A stretch of DNA of 64,000 bases, from positions 192,001 to 256,000 of the forward strand of contig CM000436.1 of assembly GCA_000165345.1 (NCBI GenBank). The letters run 5' to 3'. The position numbers and the translations under genes are program-made. Of the stretch, positions 1 to 24,794 are shown in pieces. Under the pieces are notes generated by a model that was not told the DNA's origin, searched no databases, and saw nothing but the letters and a program-made list of their open reading frames with translations. The first letter of the stretch is position 1. Each line of letters starts with the position of its first letter.

Positions 1-5153
<5,153 letters not shown>

Positions 5154-16184: not shown

Positions 16185-19139
16185 TTGTACCAAAGTAATA
16201 AGAATCCGGTATTATATGAGTATCAATATGGAAATAATCAAATGGCATTCCTAACAAAGTTAAAAACGAGTAAATTTTCTTCTGGTGTAAAAGCGGCCAA
16301 AGAAACAACATATGAAGAGTTATCAAAGGAGGAAAATGATGAAATTGAATATCCAGAAGAGAAGATGGTGGTCTTTAGAGATAGACAAAAAGCAAATATT
16401 CAGTCAAGAATTGGAGGCTTAAGCAAGAATATGAGTAATATAAGTAATGCTGGTGGCGGAATGGAGGATGATTATGAACAGAATATGGTAATATCTCACT
16501 TAAAGGATAGAGAAAAGACAGAAGAGGACATAAAAACTATTTCCAAAGCATTGGCAGGAAACGTAGTGGGAGCTTCACTGAATGAATCTGAAATTGCTAC
16601 TTTGGTCAGTTCCATGCATTATTACGAATATGAAGTGGGGGAAGTGGTAATTGAGCAAGGAGCATCTGGATTTTACTTTTTTGTCATTTCAACAGGAAGT
16701 TTTGGGGTTGAGATTAATGGTAACAGAGTCAACACAATGTCAGAAGGAACAGCTTTTGGAGAATTAGCGCTTATTCACAATACTCCAAGAAGTGCTACCA
16801 TTCTTGTTATTGAAAAAGGAGGACTTTGGGGACTTGGAAGATCCACTTTTAGAGATACACTGAGACTTATTTCATCTCGAAATTATGAGGAAAATAGGGC
16901 ATTCATTGAAAGCTTATCAATATTTTCAGGTCTTACTGACAAACAAAAGAGTCTCTTATCTGAAGCTTTAGTTAGAGAGATTTTTGTTAAAGATCAGGTC
17001 ATTATTAGAGAAAAAGAAATTGGTAATGTATTATACATGATTAAGAGTGGTATTGTTGGAGTTTTTGTTGAAGATAAATATATTCGTTCTTTAAATGAGG
17101 GAGACGCCTTTGGAGAGAGATCTCTAATGTTTGACGAACCAAGGTCTGCAACAGTAATAGCAAATGCAACAACTGAATGTTTAACTTTGAATAGAGGAAT
17201 TCTTACCCAGATTTTAGGTAACTTAGGACAAGTTCTGAGCAAAAACTTAATTCAACAATCTCTACAAAATTCTCCAATATTTAAGCAATTTACAAAAAAT
17301 CAAATGCAAATATTACTTGATAAGATTTCTATTAAGACTTTTCAAAAAGACGTTATTTTGTCTACTGCAGAGACTAAAGCACTTAATATGAGAGCCTTTG
17401 TCATCTTGGAAGGAGAGGTGCAAGTCTCTCTTCCATCAAATTGGCTTTCTAGAAGGGCCAGTAGTTTAACTTCTATGGTTATCGATAAATCTATTGGTTC
17501 TGTCAATAATTACTCACTTTCTGATTACATTAATGTTAACTTAGGAAGAGGAGATTATTTTGGGGATGACTTTGTTTTTCATCCAAAAATTCCATTTGTA
17601 TGCAAGATTGAAATGAAAAGTGAAACTAAAATTGGAGTAATCACATCTTCAATGCTTTCTGAATGCTTTGGGGATGAGAATGTTGATGTTGGACTTGAAA
17701 TTAACAGAAAAAGAGATGCAATCAAGTCGTGCTTTGTCTTCCAATACGTTTCTGAGCAACAACTAAGTCTTTTGGTAAAGTCTTTAAGGCTTGTAAAGTT
17801 TACTAGCGGTGAAAAAATTGTTGTACAAGGTGACAAAGGAACTGCTTTTTTCATTTTACAGTCTGGAGAAGTAGCTGTTTATAGAAATAACAAGTTTATT
17901 CGTTATCTTGGAAAAAATGACTACTTTGGCGAAAGAGCTCTGCTTTATGATGAATTAAGATCTGCTACTATTGAGGCTGCAACCCCTGAGGTGCATCTAT
18001 GGACTGTAGACAAAGAAGCCTTTCTTAAAATTGTTGAACCTCCAATGAGACGATATCTTGATGAAAGAATAAAGCTACAGGAAACCAGAGTGCAAATGAG
18101 TGATTTAAAGATTCTTCAAACAATTGGTAAAGGAACATTTGGAGTCGTTTATATGGTTGAAAATATTAAATCAGGAAATAAATATGCACTTAAGAAAATT
18201 TCCAAGTCACGAATTTTGGCGCTCAATATGCAGGCACATGTAAAATTGGAAAGGTCCATTTTGGCGCTCAATGACCATCCATTTATTATTAAACTTGTTA
18301 GAACATTTAAGGATTCAGAAAATATATATTTGTTGACAGAATTGATTCCTGGAGGAGAGCTATATGATGCATTACAAAGAATTGGTTTATTAACACGGTA
18401 TCAAGCTCAATTTTATATTGGCTCAATTATTCTAGCTCTCGAGTATTTACATGAGAGATCTATTGTATATAGAGATTTGAAGCCTGAAAATATATTACTA
18501 GATTCTCAGGGATATATTAAATTGATTGATTTTGGTTGTGCAAAAAAGATTGCTGGTAGAAGTTATACTTTGGCAGGTACCCCACATTACATGGCTCCAG
18601 AGGTTATTCTTGGAAAGGGATATAACTTAAGTTGTGATGCATGGGCTATTGGAATTTGCTTATATGAGTTTTTATGTGGTTGTCTTCCATTTGGAAACGA
18701 TGCTGTTGACCATTTGGAGATTTTTAAGGATATTTTGACTTCAAAGTTGGTATTTCCAAGACATTTGAATGATGTTGATACTGTTAATATAATAAAGAGA
18801 TTATTATGTAGGGTTCCAGAGGTTAGGATGGGATGTTCAGCTACTGGCTATAAGGAAATCAAGGACAATGTATTTTTTAAGGATTTTAATTTTGATAGGT
18901 TGTTAGGCAGGAGTTATGTTGCTCCATTAGTTAGGAAGTATCGAGTTTTTGCAAAAAATACAGAAAATGAGAATATAGTTGAGAATATTACTGAAGTTAG
19001 TCAGAATGAGGAGGCTTTGAGTCCTAATACCCATAATATTAAGTCCAAGCAGAAAATAAGTTTCAATGCTTCCAAAAATCACTCTGTAAGTACAAGAGGA
19101 AACAAGATGGATGAGTATGATTGGGATATAGAGTTTTAA
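16185..19139 (+). CDS. PKG: cGMP-dependent protein kinase (PKG) with four cNMP-binding domains and a C-terminal Ser/Thr kinase domain. The probable true start is the ATG at 16242 (MAFLTKL...).
   Basis: Repeated FGELALI/FGERSL/FGERALL cNMP-binding motifs are present. Kinase motifs GKGTFGVV, YRDLKPENILLD, DFG and GTPHYMAPE are present. The C-terminal DEYDWDIEF resembles apicomplexan PKG C-termini. The ORF-track start at 16185 is a TTG codon. Confidence 0.9.
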   Translation: MYQSNKNPVLYEYQYGNNQMAFLTKLKTSKFSSGVKAAKETTYEELSKEENDEIEYPEEKMVVFRDRQKANIQSRIGGLSKNMSNISNAGGGMEDDYEQNMVISHLKDREKTEEDIKTISKALAGNVVGASLNESEIATLVSSMHYYEYEVGEVVIEQGASGFYFFVISTGSFGVEINGNRVNTMSEGTAFGELALIHNTPRSATILVIEKGGLWGLGRSTFRDTLRLISSRNYEENRAFIESLSIFSGLTDKQKSLLSEALVREIFVKDQVIIREKEIGNVLYMIKSGIVGVFVEDKYIRSLNEGDAFGERSLMFDEPRSATVIANATTECLTLNRGILTQILGNLGQVLSKNLIQQSLQNSPIFKQFTKNQMQILLDKISIKTFQKDVILSTAETKALNMRAFVILEGEVQVSLPSNWLSRRASSLTSMVIDKSIGSVNNYSLSDYINVNLGRGDYFGDDFVFHPKIPFVCKIEMKSETKIGVITSSMLSECFGDENVDVGLEINRKRDAIKSCFVFQYVSEQQLSLLVKSLRLVKFTSGEKIVVQGDKGTAFFILQSGEVAVYRNNKFIRYLGKNDYFGERALLYDELRSATIEAATPEVHLWTVDKEAFLKIVEPPMRRYLDERIKLQETRVQMSDLKILQTIGKGTFGVVYMVENIKSGNKYALKKISKSRILALNMQAHVKLERSILALNDHPFIIKLVRTFKDSENIYLLTELIPGGELYDALQRIGLLTRYQAQFYIGSIILALEYLHERSIVYRDLKPENILLDSQGYIKLIDFGCAKKIAGRSYTLAGTPHYMAPEVILGKGYNLSCDAWAIGICLYEFLCGCLPFGNDAVDHLEIFKDILTSKLVFPRHLNDVDTVNIIKRLLCRVPEVRMGCSATGYKEIKDNVFFKDFNFDRLLGRSYVAPLVRKYRVFAKNTENENIVENITEVSQNEEALSPNTHNIKSKQKISFNASKNHSVSTRGNKMDEYDWDIEF

Positions 19140-19342: not shown

Positions 19343-20620
19343 CTAATCTTCGCTATATTTTTTTAAATACCCAAAAGAAAAGAATGTGGCAATTGTAGTT
19401 ACTGTATATTTGGCATTTATATCTTCGTAGTAAGGGAAAAGTAGCTCATAGATGAGTTGTTTGTTAAATGCAGACAAGCAAACAACTGTAAGTGTAAGAA
19501 ATGAAGCAATTACAGATGCCCCACTAAGTCTAAAAACTTCAGTAACTGAAAAATCTCGAAAGCTTATTTGAAATTTAGTAAAGCTAGCAACTTCGTATTC
19601 TTGAGTTGAAGAACTACTCTTTTCAATACATCTTCTAATACTTGAATTATGGTAGAATTTGTTGTTCATAATTCTGATCCAATAGGGCATTCTACAGCGT
19701 TCAGGTCTTACTTTGGACATTCTAGAATTAAAATTCTTCTGTGAAACTACTATTTCATATTCATTTTCTTGTCTCGAAACATAACCTTTAATTATATAAA
19801 AATAGAATTTTTCTACATCAAAAACATAATTTTTGAGCAACTTTAATGAAACCTGAGCGTAATTACCAATGTTAGAATAGAACCAAGAAGGTTCTACAGA
19901 TTCTGCATGCTGATTTGCAATAATCATAGGCTGATCATATATTCCAATCTTTAATATTTCACTAATGGAATAACTTTCCCTAGTATTGTTAGTAATTTGG
20001 GTATTATTCTTAATCATGAATCCATGCTCAGAAGATGAATCTTTATGAGGATTAGTGGAATTTACTGGTTTCAAATATTTGATTCCAATAGATATACTAT
20101 CTACATCAAATCCATCAAGAGTTGGTCTTTGAAAAAGAAAAAAAGGAGGATTCAAAATAGCATGACTTCTTCTGCTAAAAAATTTCTGATTCCACATATC
20201 AATACACAAACACTGTTCATGATTACTAATACTTTGTTTCTCCCAATAACATTTTCTAATTTTTGGATGAAAACTAAAGTAATTTTTATTCGCATGTTTA
20301 TATATTAAAATAACTTTAAGCCGGTCATTAAGATAAGCATCTAAAATACTATCTTTTTGAGAAACATGGGGGAGGGAGCATATAGTCATTGAAGGAACTT
20401 CTAATCTTGAATATACAGCAATTGTGGTAGAAATATTTGTAAGTTGGCCAGTTTTTAGAAAAATAAAAAAGAAGATAAAGGCCCAGTAGAGACCAAGTAG
20501 TAATAAGGAGGAAATGATGATTAAAGCCACTATTTCAGTCAATTTGGAATTTGGACCCTTCCCAAACGACCCTTTTGGAACTAACAACTCCTTAATAGAG
20601 GTAAGAAAAGAAAGAATCAT
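19343..20620 (-). CDS. Two-pass membrane protein (425 aa) with a short N-terminus, TM1, a loop of about 290 aa, TM2 and a short C-terminus. It is a candidate ENaC/degenerin/ASIC-like channel subunit (see findings).
   Basis: Hydrophobic segments lie at aa ~28-55 and ~365-387. VPSMTIC follows about 20 aa after TM1, and GASVI lies in TM2. Confidence 0.6.
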   Translation of the reverse strand: MILSFLTSIKELLVPKGSFGKGPNSKLTEIVALIIISSLLLLGLYWAFIFFFIFLKTGQLTNISTTIAVYSRLEVPSMTICSLPHVSQKDSILDAYLNDRLKVILIYKHANKNYFSFHPKIRKCYWEKQSISNHEQCLCIDMWNQKFFSRRSHAILNPPFFLFQRPTLDGFDVDSISIGIKYLKPVNSTNPHKDSSSEHGFMIKNNTQITNNTRESYSISEILKIGIYDQPMIIANQHAESVEPSWFYSNIGNYAQVSLKLLKNYVFDVEKFYFYIIKGYVSRQENEYEIVVSQKNFNSRMSKVRPERCRMPYWIRIMNNKFYHNSSIRRCIEKSSSSTQEYEVASFTKFQISFRDFSVTEVFRLSGASVIASFLTLTVVCLSAFNKQLIYELLFPYYEDINAKYTVTTIATFFSFGYLKKYSED

Positions 20621-21206: not shown

Positions 21207-24200
21207 ATGGGAGATTTTGAGGAAAATGCAGATTATAGCGATGAGTTATGCATTAAAGCTTTGAATAATTTGAATAGGCCTCCTGAAATAGATGAGCCAT
21301 TTTTAGAATTTTTCAAGCCAAAGCCAAAATTAAGAATAAAGCAGAAGTCAAGAGGTAAATCTTTGGATATTAGCGATGTTCCTAGGGCTTATGGTGTATT
21401 TGGCGAAGAACTGGAACAACCTGGTCCAGACAACATTCAAAAGTCTGTTTCTGCAAGCAGGAGTGAATTAAATACTTTACATGAGGATCATGATACTAGA
21501 AGGTTAAGCAGTGGTATTAATAACATTAGAAGGGTCAGAAGTGAAATGGGGAGATTTAATAAGACAACTGATGGAACGAAGGCAGAGAATTTGCTAAGCA
21601 GTATTTTGATCTTACCAGACCAGTCTGGAAAAAAAGGAGGCTCTAGGACTGAAGTAAGAAAAAGGAAATTGAACAGTAATGCAAGTATAAATTCGTCTAT
21701 AAAAGATGAATTTCTTTCAGTAGCTACTCCTATTTCTCCTTATGTAATTTCTCCAAAAAATAATAATTTTGATTATTCAAGTGGAAATGTCCATAATAAA
21801 AAGCTTACAGAGAAAAATATTGACTTATTAAAGTCTCTGATTGAGATTAAGGAAAAGGAATTGAACAATTTAAACACAACCTATAGTTATGAGAAATCAG
21901 AATTCAAACTTGAAATAATTCGACTTAAGCAAATAATTAAAGAAAGTGAAGAAAGTCACTTGCAATTACAGAAGGAAATTGTGGAAAGGGATGAAGCTTT
22001 AGCAGAATCAAGACGAAACTACGAGAAACTGGAATTAGATTTTGTATCAACAAAGCAGTCATTAGAAATAATGCTTGAAGCGGAGAGGAATGCAAATCAA
22101 CATCTTAGACAAGAATTAAGAGAAAAAAATGCCAATGACTCAAGTTTAGGATACTTTGGTGAAAACGGTATTTTGGAGCTTCAAAACTATAAGCTAAAGT
22201 ATTTTGAGGCAATGAGAAAACTTCAGAGACTAGAAACAGAGATGGTAATAAATAGGAATAAAGGATATAAACTTGAGGAAGATAGAGAATTTGTGAATAA
22301 TGATTCAGTTCCTATTTTTGTAGGCTTACCTGAAAATAGGCAATTTACCTCTGAATATAATCCAGAAAACCTAGGGACAAATTTGGAGGTCTGTTTGAAT
22401 ATTAAGGAAAACTTTGAAGAGATTCGAAGCAATACGGAAATCATCCAGTTGGTTTCAGAAAATTCCTTGTTAGAAGAGAAATTGATAAAATTAAGAGAGG
22501 AGCTTGAAATGGAGAAGAATAAATCGATAGTTGCAAATATAAGACATTTAACTCAAAAGCCAATTTTGATTTCTTCTTGTACTAGTACGCGCCTTTCAAT
22601 GCATGAAATTGAGACTATGGAAGCAAAAGCTACTCAGTATGAACAGAAATATGAGCATACTAGATTAAGATTATGCAGAAATACAATTAGCATTCAGATT
22701 ATATATCCCAAAAATCAACTTAGTATTCAAAAACTTGGTAGCCTTGGAATCCAAATGGATTTAAATTTTGAATCAAAATTAGATAAATCAATTCAAACTC
22801 ATGTGGATGAAAATGTGTGTGCGCATGTAAATACCGGTAATATTACGATTGACATGCAAAATACGCAGAGCGAAGTTACAGTGAATATTGAAAAAATTCA
22901 AGATGAGATAAGGAGCGAGAATGACATTAGTTTGTATGATTTGGCTTTTAAGGATTATAATTTTGTCCCAAAATTGCTCAAAAACTATGCTAAGAATGTA
23001 GATACTCAGACTGAAGATGTTAAAGAATATGTAAACATAAATAAAGAGTTTAATTCTGAGATTAACGGGGTTAGAGTTGAGAATTGTAAAGATAAGCAAA
23101 TTAAAAGGGATTTGGGTAGGAATTATTTAATAGGCCGAAAGTGTGAATTTTTAAAAACAGTAATACTTGAATTGAAGTTTGATATAATAGAATTGAAAAA
23201 AGTTATAATGAAATTTATAGGTCAGCCACAAAATTTGACGGAAGCCTTTGAAAGTTTAATTAATAATGGATATGATACTATGAATGCGGATTTTTATAGA
23301 GGAGAACATCTTTTAGAAATTGTTGCATCTATTCTTTCAAAGATATTCAATATGTACCTGGAAAAGTCAAATCAAATTGAGGAATTTATACGGAAAGATA
23401 AAGATTGGATGAGTTATTCAAGTAAGATAGAATCAGAATTCAATAAATATTCTCTAGAAAAGTCCGAACTCATAGGTGAGATAAACTACCTTAGAAAGAT
23501 GTTGAATGAAAACACAGAAAAAGAGAAAAAAGTGACTAATGATAAAGTTGAAAGAGGTATAAATGTTCCAAACTACAATGGAGACGATGATGTTATGAGT
23601 TGTTACACTTTTGGTGAATCCTCTAGTGTCAATTTGGAAAATGAAACAGAATGGAACATTGATGACTTTAGTCTTACGAAGTTGGTAAACTCAAGAAATA
23701 ATATTGATGTGTCGAATATTGAGCCATTAAATACAGAACTAGAGATTGTTGAGGAGTCGAAAAGCATAACTAAGGTGAAGAATGAAAGTGATAGCTTTAA
23801 TAAGATTGTAAAGCTTCAGGGTAGGATTCGATCGTTCAAACAAAACCGAATTAAGCTACATTCTATTGAAAAAGATGGTGATAGCTTAAGTAATCAAATA
23901 GGGAAGTCTTTAATCCCATATAAAAAGAATAGTTTTCATAACAGTGAAGTTTTGAGTGTTCAGGAAAATATCGAGTTTGAAGATATTAATTCACTTTTAT
24001 TTCGTCATTCACCTCCTCAAATGAATGGAGATGAATTAGCAAATTTAGGAGAATTAGAAGGAATGACAGGTACAGCAATGATGCTGAGATTATATCGTTA
24101 TTATAAACAAACAAAACTATTAGAAAAACAGGTAATACAACTATCCAAAGAAAAACAAAAATTGGAATTAGAATATGAAAAGGATGTTCAATCTAGTCAG

Positions 24201-24794
24201 ATGAATCTTTTATCCTCCAAACTTATTATTGAGGCCAGAGATATGGAGATTAAAACTCTTAAAGAAAAGTGTGAATTTCTCAACAATAAACTGGAAGATG
24301 ATATAAAAAATATTAAATCTGCAGCTAGAGAGGAAATTGAAAAAGTCTGGAAACCTAAAGTGGACGAAATTAATTCTAAATGTGAAGATTATTTATTTAA
24401 AATTGGCTCTTTGGAAAGCGAACTGCTTATTATTCGTCAACAACTAGCATTCCAAAAGCAGCTAAATTCTAAGGAAACTAAGAAAAATGAATATAGCAGT
24501 ATTATTAAAGGTAAATATTTTACTGGCGTAAATTCAGATAAATATAAACGATTTTCTAGGGAGCTAATTGAAAAGATATCATATGGAGTTGATAAGTTTG
24601 AATTAAAAAGTAATGAAATTAATGATGATGTTGATGATGAGTCTGATTCTTCGATAGAAAATAGTGCTTCAGTTAATATTAAATCAGCTGTTGAAGCTAG
24701 AGGTGATGATTCTGATGATCAAAACATTTCTAGCTTAAAATCTGCATTGTCAAAATTAAAAACAGTTTCTAATGAATATAAATCATTCAATTAG
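21207..24794 (+). CDS. Large coiled-coil protein (1195 aa), hypothetical.
   Basis: Uninterrupted ORF with E/K/L/Q-rich heptad-like composition throughout. I recognise no enzymatic motif. Confidence 0.7.
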   Translation: MGDFEENADYSDELCIKALNNLNRPPEIDEPFLEFFKPKPKLRIKQKSRGKSLDISDVPRAYGVFGEELEQPGPDNIQKSVSASRSELNTLHEDHDTRRLSSGINNIRRVRSEMGRFNKTTDGTKAENLLSSILILPDQSGKKGGSRTEVRKRKLNSNASINSSIKDEFLSVATPISPYVISPKNNNFDYSSGNVHNKKLTEKNIDLLKSLIEIKEKELNNLNTTYSYEKSEFKLEIIRLKQIIKESEESHLQLQKEIVERDEALAESRRNYEKLELDFVSTKQSLEIMLEAERNANQHLRQELREKNANDSSLGYFGENGILELQNYKLKYFEAMRKLQRLETEMVINRNKGYKLEEDREFVNNDSVPIFVGLPENRQFTSEYNPENLGTNLEVCLNIKENFEEIRSNTEIIQLVSENSLLEEKLIKLREELEMEKNKSIVANIRHLTQKPILISSCTSTRLSMHEIETMEAKATQYEQKYEHTRLRLCRNTISIQIIYPKNQLSIQKLGSLGIQMDLNFESKLDKSIQTHVDENVCAHVNTGNITIDMQNTQSEVTVNIEKIQDEIRSENDISLYDLAFKDYNFVPKLLKNYAKNVDTQTEDVKEYVNINKEFNSEINGVRVENCKDKQIKRDLGRNYLIGRKCEFLKTVILELKFDIIELKKVIMKFIGQPQNLTEAFESLINNGYDTMNADFYRGEHLLEIVASILSKIFNMYLEKSNQIEEFIRKDKDWMSYSSKIESEFNKYSLEKSELIGEINYLRKMLNENTEKEKKVTNDKVERGINVPNYNGDDDVMSCYTFGESSSVNLENETEWNIDDFSLTKLVNSRNNIDVSNIEPLNTELEIVEESKSITKVKNESDSFNKIVKLQGRIRSFKQNRIKLHSIEKDGDSLSNQIGKSLIPYKKNSFHNSEVLSVQENIEFEDINSLLFRHSPPQMNGDELANLGELEGMTGTAMMLRLYRYYKQTKLLEKQVIQLSKEKQKLELEYEKDVQSSQMNLLSSKLIIEARDMEIKTLKEKCEFLNNKLEDDIKNIKSAAREEIEKVWKPKVDEINSKCEDYLFKIGSLESELLIIRQQLAFQKQLNSKETKKNEYSSIIKGKYFTGVNSDKYKRFSRELIEKISYGVDKFELKSNEINDDVDDESDSSIENSASVNIKSAVEARGDDSDDQNISSLKSALSKLKTVSNEYKSFN

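Follow-up and report, generated by a model that had tools for sequence, protein, structure and literature searches.

The PAC channel and channels of the ENaC/ASIC type are built from a common 12-stranded beta-domain and two transmembrane (TM) helices, with no detectable sequence homology between the two groups (PMC7904269). Where ASIC and ENaC carry elaborate peripheral domains, PAC has a simple helix-turn-helix insertion, and the lysine associated with its anion selectivity lies near the cytoplasmic end of TM2 (PMC7904269). The subject of this work is a Cryptosporidium gene located at positions 19343–20620, on the minus strand, of a 64,000-nucleotide stretch of contig CM000436.1 (GenBank assembly GCA_000165345.1, positions 192,001–256,000), which is referred to here as the window. 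Its 425-residue product is read as belonging to a minimal sequence family, the third to have the ASIC/ENaC/PAC architecture, in its predicted fold and in its putative function as a trimeric channel, and it is towards this reading that we modestly lean. The architecture is already known; what is new is the sequence family, its lineage, and how its features are combined.

No DEG/ENaC-, ASIC- or PAC-type protein from an apicomplexan is described in the literature consulted. One survey by BLAST reported finding none of these channels, either in Cryptosporidium or in further pathogenic protozoa (PMC3681921), protozoan ion channels were reviewed in 2022 with no mention of DEG/ENaC, ASIC or PAC (PMC9799330), and PAC is described as conserved in vertebrates (PMC7904269). 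DEG/ENaC homologues of Cafeteria roenbergensis and Tunicaraptor unikontum show that the architecture extends beyond animals (PMC10507113). These are canonical PF00858-type proteins with the His-Gly (HG) motif, FPAVTVCN, the thumb cysteines and GxS (PMC10507113), whereas the Cryptosporidium family has only the Pro and Cys of the post-TM1 motif. The sole reported alveolate DEG/ENaC sequence is “Symbiodinium KB8 ASIC1” (CAE7949834; PMC10507113). In the published tree (PMC10507113, Supplementary Data 9), this sequence and Cafeteria KAA0153446 sit on branches of 0.028 and 0.004; being nearly coincident with Cafeteria, it may represent contamination from that organism.

The gene product and its predicted fold

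The open reading frame (ORF) at 19343–20620 starts with ATG and comprises 425 codons plus a stop, with no intron required. The gene model is supported by 11 collinear, full-length Cryptosporidium orthologues of 405–460 residues, and tblastn searches with more distant relatives match the ORF directly. The ORF is genuine. Kyte-Doolittle hydropathy reveals exactly two strongly hydrophobic segments, at about residues 29–55 and 364–386, separated by a loop of ~308 residues that holds five N-x-S/T sequons and six of the protein’s seven cysteines. An earlier note on this DNA, which proposed a divergent member of the ENaC/DEG/ASIC family, had described the same two-TM topology, which hydropathy confirms; the large loop is also present, at ~308 rather than the ~290 residues given there.

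Prediction with AlphaFold2 on a 20-sequence family alignment yielded a model with a mean predicted local distance difference test score (pLDDT) of 62.6, a predicted template modelling score of 0.56, and core strands at pLDDT 80–88. The model consists of a helix at residues 23–57 (TM1), ~12–13 strands, and a second helix at 366–394 (TM2). Among the strands are a long hairpin (254–266/284–295) and a long strand (341–356) that runs into TM2. In the region where a counterpart of the PAC helix-turn-helix, inserted between beta7 and beta8, might be expected, the model has a disordered loop (186–221) and one short helix (230–238). The predicted architecture is accordingly that of a ~12-strand beta domain between two TM helices, with a PAC-like size.

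A Foldseek search of this model against 350,542 PDB chains gave 33 matches with expectation (E) values ≤1e-3. Ranks 1–14 were all PAC/ASOR/TMEM206 (E 6e-7 to 5e-5, probability 0.99–1.00), making PAC the source of the nearest solved structures (for example PDB entries 7jna, 7sqf, 8fbl and 7ji3), and ranks 15–50 were all ENaC, ASIC1/2/5, FaNaC, BRTNaC1 or PDPNaC1. Solved DEG/ENaC/ASIC structures include entries 6ave, 6bqn, 8on7 and 9jf7. Two structure-comparison programs placed only PAC and DEG/ENaC chains on top, with a clear gap to all others, and the top 15 in structure comparison came exclusively from PAC and DEG/ENaC-type families. Foldseek puts PAC first because the 425-residue protein is, like PAC, minimal. 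In the predicted fold, two TM helices flank a palm/beta-ball-type ectodomain, as in DEG/ENaC channels. The fold class suggested by the earlier note agrees with the model; the nearest structural relative, PAC, had not been considered there. Assignment of the fold to the ASIC/ENaC/PAC type is, in our judgement, probably right.

Two other kinds of membrane protein were compared. P2X receptors are trimeric and, like the 425-residue protein, have two TM helices and a large ectodomain. None occurs in either fold-search list, and the P2X ectodomain fold was not found in the model. For an Erv41/ERGIC-type cargo receptor, neither the luminal Erv41-type beta-sandwich nor the ERGIC_N and COPIIcoated_ERV Pfam domains were found.

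Family range and conserved positions

Judged by sequence, the protein belongs to a small, previously undescribed family that includes two paralogues in Cryptosporidium and members in gregarines and the chromerid Vitrella. The 11 close relatives are all from Cryptosporidium and range from 98% identity (C. tyzzeri) to 45% (C. muris and C. serpentis), with annotations limited to hypothetical, transmembrane or secreted protein. An exhaustive hidden Markov model search of 1.84 billion cluster representatives returned just 10 proteins at E≤1e-3. Members found beyond the orthologues are a second, 544-residue Cryptosporidium paralogue (P0017; XP_067201159.1, from C. sp. chipmunk genotype I), a protein of Vitrella brassicaformis (P0016; CEM30974.1), transcripts from the gregarines Filipodium and Siedleckia, and four proteins from Logan assemblies, two of them full-length (P0012 and P0013; runs SRR25454952-56). 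The second Cryptosporidium paralogue has no copy in the 64-kb window. Since P0012 and P0013 come from one sequencing project, a single organism carries two paralogues there as well. Heteromeric assembly is conceivable. The Vitrella protein lacks a hydrophobic TM1 and has PARPRD in place of the family’s PSxxxC, most likely as a result of a gene-model error rather than of real divergence. No family member from Plasmodium or Toxoplasma was found in the same search, a gap suggesting that those lineages have lost it, or else that its role is tied to lifestyles of the gut-lumen and gregarine-like kind.

Column conservation was scored over 19 sequences. Starting at the N-terminus, a cytosolic pre-TM1 motif covers residues 12–29 (LLVPKGSFGKGPNSKLTE; window 20534–20587, minus strand, as for all features of this gene). 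Within it, F19-G20, part of LVPxG[ST]FG and nine residues ahead of TM1, is invariant or nearly so throughout the family. TM1 itself (residues 29–55; 20456–20536) has a hydropathy maximum of 2.48, coincides with the predicted helix 23–57, and aligns with ASIC1 TM1 in hhalign. Just past it, the post-TM1 strand and motif (residues 70–84, YSRLEVPSMTICSLP; 20369–20413) contain P76, S77 and C81, which are again invariant or nearly so, and form the best hhalign region.

The beta-rich domain, extracellular or luminal, spans residues 56–363 (19532–20455), with the strands and sequons noted above. It includes a conserved cysteine cluster at residues 124–147 (20180–20251), with C124, C137 and C139 and a CxC[IV]D.W strand. 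These three cysteines, invariant or nearly so, and C81 are the sole four family-conserved cysteines of the ectodomain. Further along, the Asn/Ser/Thr-rich loop at residues 186–221 (19958–20065) varies in length between species, as alignment gaps show, and is modelled at low confidence (pLDDT 24–32). It is followed by G226 (in K[IV]GxY), P244 and W246, all three invariant or nearly so family-wide. In the Cryptosporidium alignment, a basic insert at residues 296–340 (19601–19735), which carries C309 and C331, is lineage-specific, being found in intestinal-type species but not in the gastric C. muris and C. serpentis.

The strand before TM2 (residues 350–363, FQISFRDFSVTEVF; 19532–19573) keeps the family pattern [FY]xx[FY]xVxE and is the putative counterpart of beta12, on the basis of conservation, hhalign and the predicted strand at 341–356. 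TM2, the presumed pore-lining helix (residues 364–394; 19439–19531), is delimited by hydropathy, the predicted helix 366–394 and column conservation, and contains the near-invariant N386. Next to it, K387 is kept without exception in P0012 and the 12 Cryptosporidium orthologues; P0018 has R there, Vitrella and Filipodium have N, and the paralogue clade (P0017 among them) has Y. The cytosolic C-terminus (residues 395–425; 19346–19438) begins with the family-invariant F395-P396, followed by a conserved amphipathic segment. Purifying conservation is thus focused on membrane-proximal elements, i.e., the pre-TM1 FG, the post-TM1 P-S-x3-C, the beta12-like strand, N386 and FP.

Three short words had served as family signatures in the earlier note, and all are present where it placed them: the post-TM1 word within TTIAVYSRLEVPSMTICSLP (residues 65–84), the TM2 word within RLSGASVIASFLTL (residues 364–377), and YEVAS at residues 342–346, with GAS 25 residues further on. 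Their conservation differs. The post-TM1 motif holds up in part, as P76, S77 and C81 are conserved and the region is the best aligned of all, while T79 is variable (T/A/I/V/P). G367-A368-S369, taken as the selectivity filter, reads SAT in both C. muris and C. serpentis, and distant members have GVS, HRM, GSF, NKH or SQY at this site. YEVAS, taken as a pre-TM2 marker, is also missing from C. muris and C. serpentis. A check across orthologues therefore retains the post-TM1 Pro and Cys and loses the GAS position.

Relationship to known channels and alternative readings

Sequence comparison with DEG/ENaC channels relied on profile-profile alignment with hhalign. An ASIC1-seeded search gave only vertebrate ASIC1 and hence a narrow profile, so a diverse set was substituted: human ENaC alpha/beta/gamma, ASIC1/2/3/5, Aplysia FaNaC, Platynereis MGIC, and C. 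elegans ACD-1 and ACD-3, drawn from Supplementary Data 1 of PMC10507113 and supplemented with database ASIC1 sequences. This set was later enlarged by two Cafeteria sequences and an unlabelled one, all from that supplement. The E value was 0.18 for the family against vertebrate ASIC1 only, 0.015 against the diverse set (0.0037 with match columns defined by the first sequence), and 0.0027 with Cafeteria included. Cryptosporidium orthologues alone gave 0.0016 (probability 16%), and distant relatives alone gave 0.0069. Scores of the family against the diverse profile were 32.4–33.9 (E 0.0016–0.0037), with probabilities of 9–16%.

In every one of these comparisons, the aligned region was TM1 plus the post-TM1 strand. 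The Cryptosporidium-only and distant-only subsets selected the same DEG/ENaC segment, and in the latter the aligned stretch was exactly ATYRSLEAPSVTICSVND against ASIC1 VAASQLTFPAVTLCNLNE. Reversed profiles scored 16.9–18.9, compared with 32.4 for the real one. Shuffling of 10-column blocks gave a mean of 17.3 (standard deviation 2.9), and none of 60 such shuffles reached 32.4, nor did any of 60 single-column shuffles. For calibration, PAC against DEG/ENaC scored 13.8–17.9 (E 0.18–0.56). The spacing of Pro76 and Cys81, with the Cys five residues on, equals that of the invariant Pro88 and Cys93 of DEG/ENaC (F-P88-AVTL-C93). Of the full F-P-x-[VI]-T-x-C-N motif, the F, T and N positions vary in the family (V/A, T/A/I/V and S/P, respectively). 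Relaxed maximum-accuracy alignment is collinear at three anchors, namely TM1 with the post-TM1 strand, a cysteine pair (C124 and C137 on ASIC1 C172 and C179, at low confidence), and beta12, where QISFRDFSVTEV falls on ASIC1 LDIFFEVLNYET as the region of second-highest confidence. On the profile evidence, the resemblance to DEG/ENaC is reproducible but sub-significant, and is centred on the post-TM1 motif.

Several features set the family apart from DEG/ENaC channels. All DEG/ENaC sequences of the alignment carry H28 and G29, whereas the family has no HG, as the earlier note had observed, and has the invariant F19-G20 instead. DEG/ENaC channels also have a G/S-x-S belt, a Cys-rich thumb, a large finger and a knuckle, all of which the family lacks. 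They possess ~14 conserved ectodomain cysteines (12 invariant in the alignment used) against four in the family, in agreement with the earlier remark that cysteines are fewer than in metazoan ectodomains, and the ectodomain is ~310 residues long in the 425-residue protein, compared with ~370 in ASIC1. The family also differs from PAC. Apart from fold, there is no detectable sequence relationship (no Pfam match; hhalign E 0.39 with a two-sequence PAC profile), the post-TM1 site is Tyr in PAC and Cys in the family, and the pre-TM1 FG motif has no described PAC counterpart. PAC has its selectivity Lys, whereas K387, which recalls it and may be its positional counterpart, is not conserved throughout the family. 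PAC is also reported from vertebrates, whereas the family occurs in apicomplexans and a chromerid. Because the Pfam models, His-Gly, the GxS belt and the thumb cysteines all fail, the family is placed outside both DEG/ENaC and PAC.

A number of results weigh against the proposed architecture and channel function. The fold call depends on a single medium-confidence AlphaFold2 model from 20 sequences. With the 12 Cryptosporidium sequences only, the model was poor (pLDDT 47.7), and Foldseek found nothing relevant with it, the best E being 0.06 among unrelated folds. The fold result is therefore sensitive to alignment depth; by the same token, two-TM topology and beta content are not enough to produce a match, since the poor model finds none. 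Template modelling scores of the fold matches are low (0.2–0.46) and root-mean-square deviations large, as expected for a monomer whose TM helices and loops are flexible, though an imperfect model would give the same. In Pfam, the 425-residue protein matches zero families at E≤10, and when the sequences of all PDB chains were searched with phmmer and with profile hmmsearch, no ASIC, ENaC or PAC chain was recovered. No sequence method is significant, with an hhalign probability of at most 16%, and one of 60 shuffles of 25-column blocks, which leave motifs intact, reached 32.4. The family scores 15.1 against PAC (E 0.39; 0.36–0.39 across comparisons), which is noise level for a PAC profile of two sequences. 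Lastly, K387 is weak evidence of selectivity because basic residues are common at the ends of TM helices.

The sequence signal could alternatively mean that the protein is a bona fide, highly divergent ENaC/DEG/ASIC member, related by common descent, conducting Na+ and using GAS as its filter. DEG/ENaC is the best and sole recurrent profile-profile signal, at the equivalent TM1/post-TM1 segment, and its score exceeds that of PAC against DEG/ENaC. The invariant Pro and Cys are spaced as in DEG/ENaC, the four conserved ectodomain cysteines resemble the first four of DEG/ENaC (with C124/C137 paired to C172/C179), PF00858 is the sole Pfam match of one relative, and the fold matches include DEG/ENaC chains. 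Nevertheless, such membership is unlikely. Neither PF00858 nor the TMEM206 model PF15122 matches the 425-residue protein at E≤10, and PF00858 matches only one of 16 family members (P0012; E 0.054, 13 bits against a 23.6-bit cutoff). That match is at noise level, since the spurious Sod_Fe_C (0.024) and SipL (0.078) are comparable. His-Gly is absent, and hhalign does not align the pre-TM1 FG with it; the thumb, with its ~ten cysteines, is missing; and the unconserved GAS lands on ASIC1 G437-Q-M in the relaxed alignment, off the GAS belt at 444–446. Foldseek, moreover, ranks PAC first. Lineage alone does not explain the divergence, because DEG/ENaC proteins of Cafeteria and Tunicaraptor keep all canonical motifs. 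The idea of the earlier note is thus partly supported: its topology, fold class and post-TM1 motif stand, while GAS, YEVAS and family membership do not.

About equally improbable is that the fold is an artefact of AlphaFold2 on a shallow alignment, and that the gene encodes an unrelated two-pass protein with a beta-rich luminal domain, such as an Erv41-type cargo receptor or a lineage-specific surface protein. The failure of the 12-sequence model bears on this explanation. Against it, only PAC and DEG/ENaC chains top the lists of two structure-comparison programs, the independent sequence signal gives the same family at the equivalent position, and ERGIC/Erv families have no Pfam match.

A closer tie to PAC/TMEM206 (PF15122), in line with the top Foldseek ranks, is less probable again. 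PF15122 (cutoff 27 bits) detects human PAC at 7e-170 (564 bits) and not the 425-residue protein, and the hhalign comparison described above, for which the PAC profile comprised the human and bovine sequences only, gives E 0.36–0.39. The TM2 residue is basic in only part of the family, Vitrella and Filipodium having N and the paralogue clade Y, the post-TM1 position is Tyr in PAC rather than Cys, and PAC is described as conserved in vertebrates (PMC7904269). Finally, that the fold is right but the protein is a receptor, adhesin or structural membrane protein agrees with the lack of conservation of the pore-defining motifs of PAC and DEG/ENaC and with a TM2 devoid of conserved charge or Gly-x-Ser filter, and yet is very improbable, since all of the listed PAC/DEG/ENaC-type fold matches are described as ion channels, and TM2, the pre-TM1 FG and the post-TM2 FP belong to the best-conserved elements of the family, a pattern more in keeping with a working membrane pore than with a passive anchor.

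The PAC-like minimal architecture of the family occurs together with DEG/ENaC-like landmarks: four core cysteines, a conserved pre-TM1 segment that contains Gly, and Pro and Cys after TM1. More speculatively, and with considerable doubt, the family may represent an ancient third branch of a trimeric ASIC/ENaC/PAC channel superfamily, retained in early-branching apicomplexans (Cryptosporidium and gregarines) and in chromerids. On that reading, its mix of features could tie the two animal families, at present regarded as unrelated in sequence, to a common origin older than animals.

Proposed mechanism, significance and genomic setting

By analogy with DEG/ENaC and PAC, three subunits would be arranged around a central axis, as a homotrimer or as a heterotrimer that includes the paralogue, with the pore lined by TM2. 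Both termini would be cytosolic, with the glycosylated beta-domain facing the cell exterior or the lumen of an organelle. Close to the cytoplasmic mouth would be the pre-TM1 FG segment and N386 (with K387). The strands that join TM1 and TM2 could couple an external stimulus to gating; acid, ligand and mechanical force are candidate stimuli, each with precedent in the superfamily. In ASIC structures, the His-Gly motif is a re-entrant loop lining the lower pore. The FG segment occupies the same relative position as this motif and may be its analogue. Lys387 of the orthologue clade offers at most a weak hint of PAC-like anion preference.

If correct, the reading would provide the first channel-like protein of ASIC/ENaC/PAC type reported in apicomplexan parasites, and a new ion-channel class in Cryptosporidium, which is a major cause of diarrhoea in children and for which treatment options are poor. 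It would carry the architecture into Myzozoa, in a form that has diverged far more than the canonical Cafeteria and Tunicaraptor homologues, and an intermediate family would make common origin versus convergence of PAC and DEG/ENaC directly testable. Should the third-branch reading also hold, the protein would be a stimulus-gated channel (responding, for example, to pH or a ligand) exposed on the parasite surface or within a compartment of secretory or endolysosomal type, and as such a candidate sensor of cues for excystation, invasion or egress, and possibly a drug target. Specialists in parasite physiology and in DEG/ENaC/PAC evolution would find the prediction surprising, and it is itself directly testable.

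The upstream neighbour of the gene is a 984-residue ORF at window positions 16185–19139 on the plus strand, with a protein kinase domain (1.8e-63) and three cyclic-nucleotide-binding stretches (7.4e-52). It is of the cGMP-dependent protein kinase type and corresponds to C. parvum PKG, known in the literature as cgd8_750. As listed, this ORF begins with TTG, and an internal ATG is probably the true start. Given this neighbour, the gene for the 425-residue protein is probably cgd8_740 or cgd8_760, the identifiers flanking PKG, for neither of which was a mention found in the literature consulted. On the other side, the plus strand carries an ORF of 1195 residues at 21207–24794, which is Lys/Glu/Asn-rich and coiled-coil-like and has no Pfam family at E≤1e-3. 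The base composition of the window is ~30% G+C, except at positions 2001–4000, where it falls to 18.5%.

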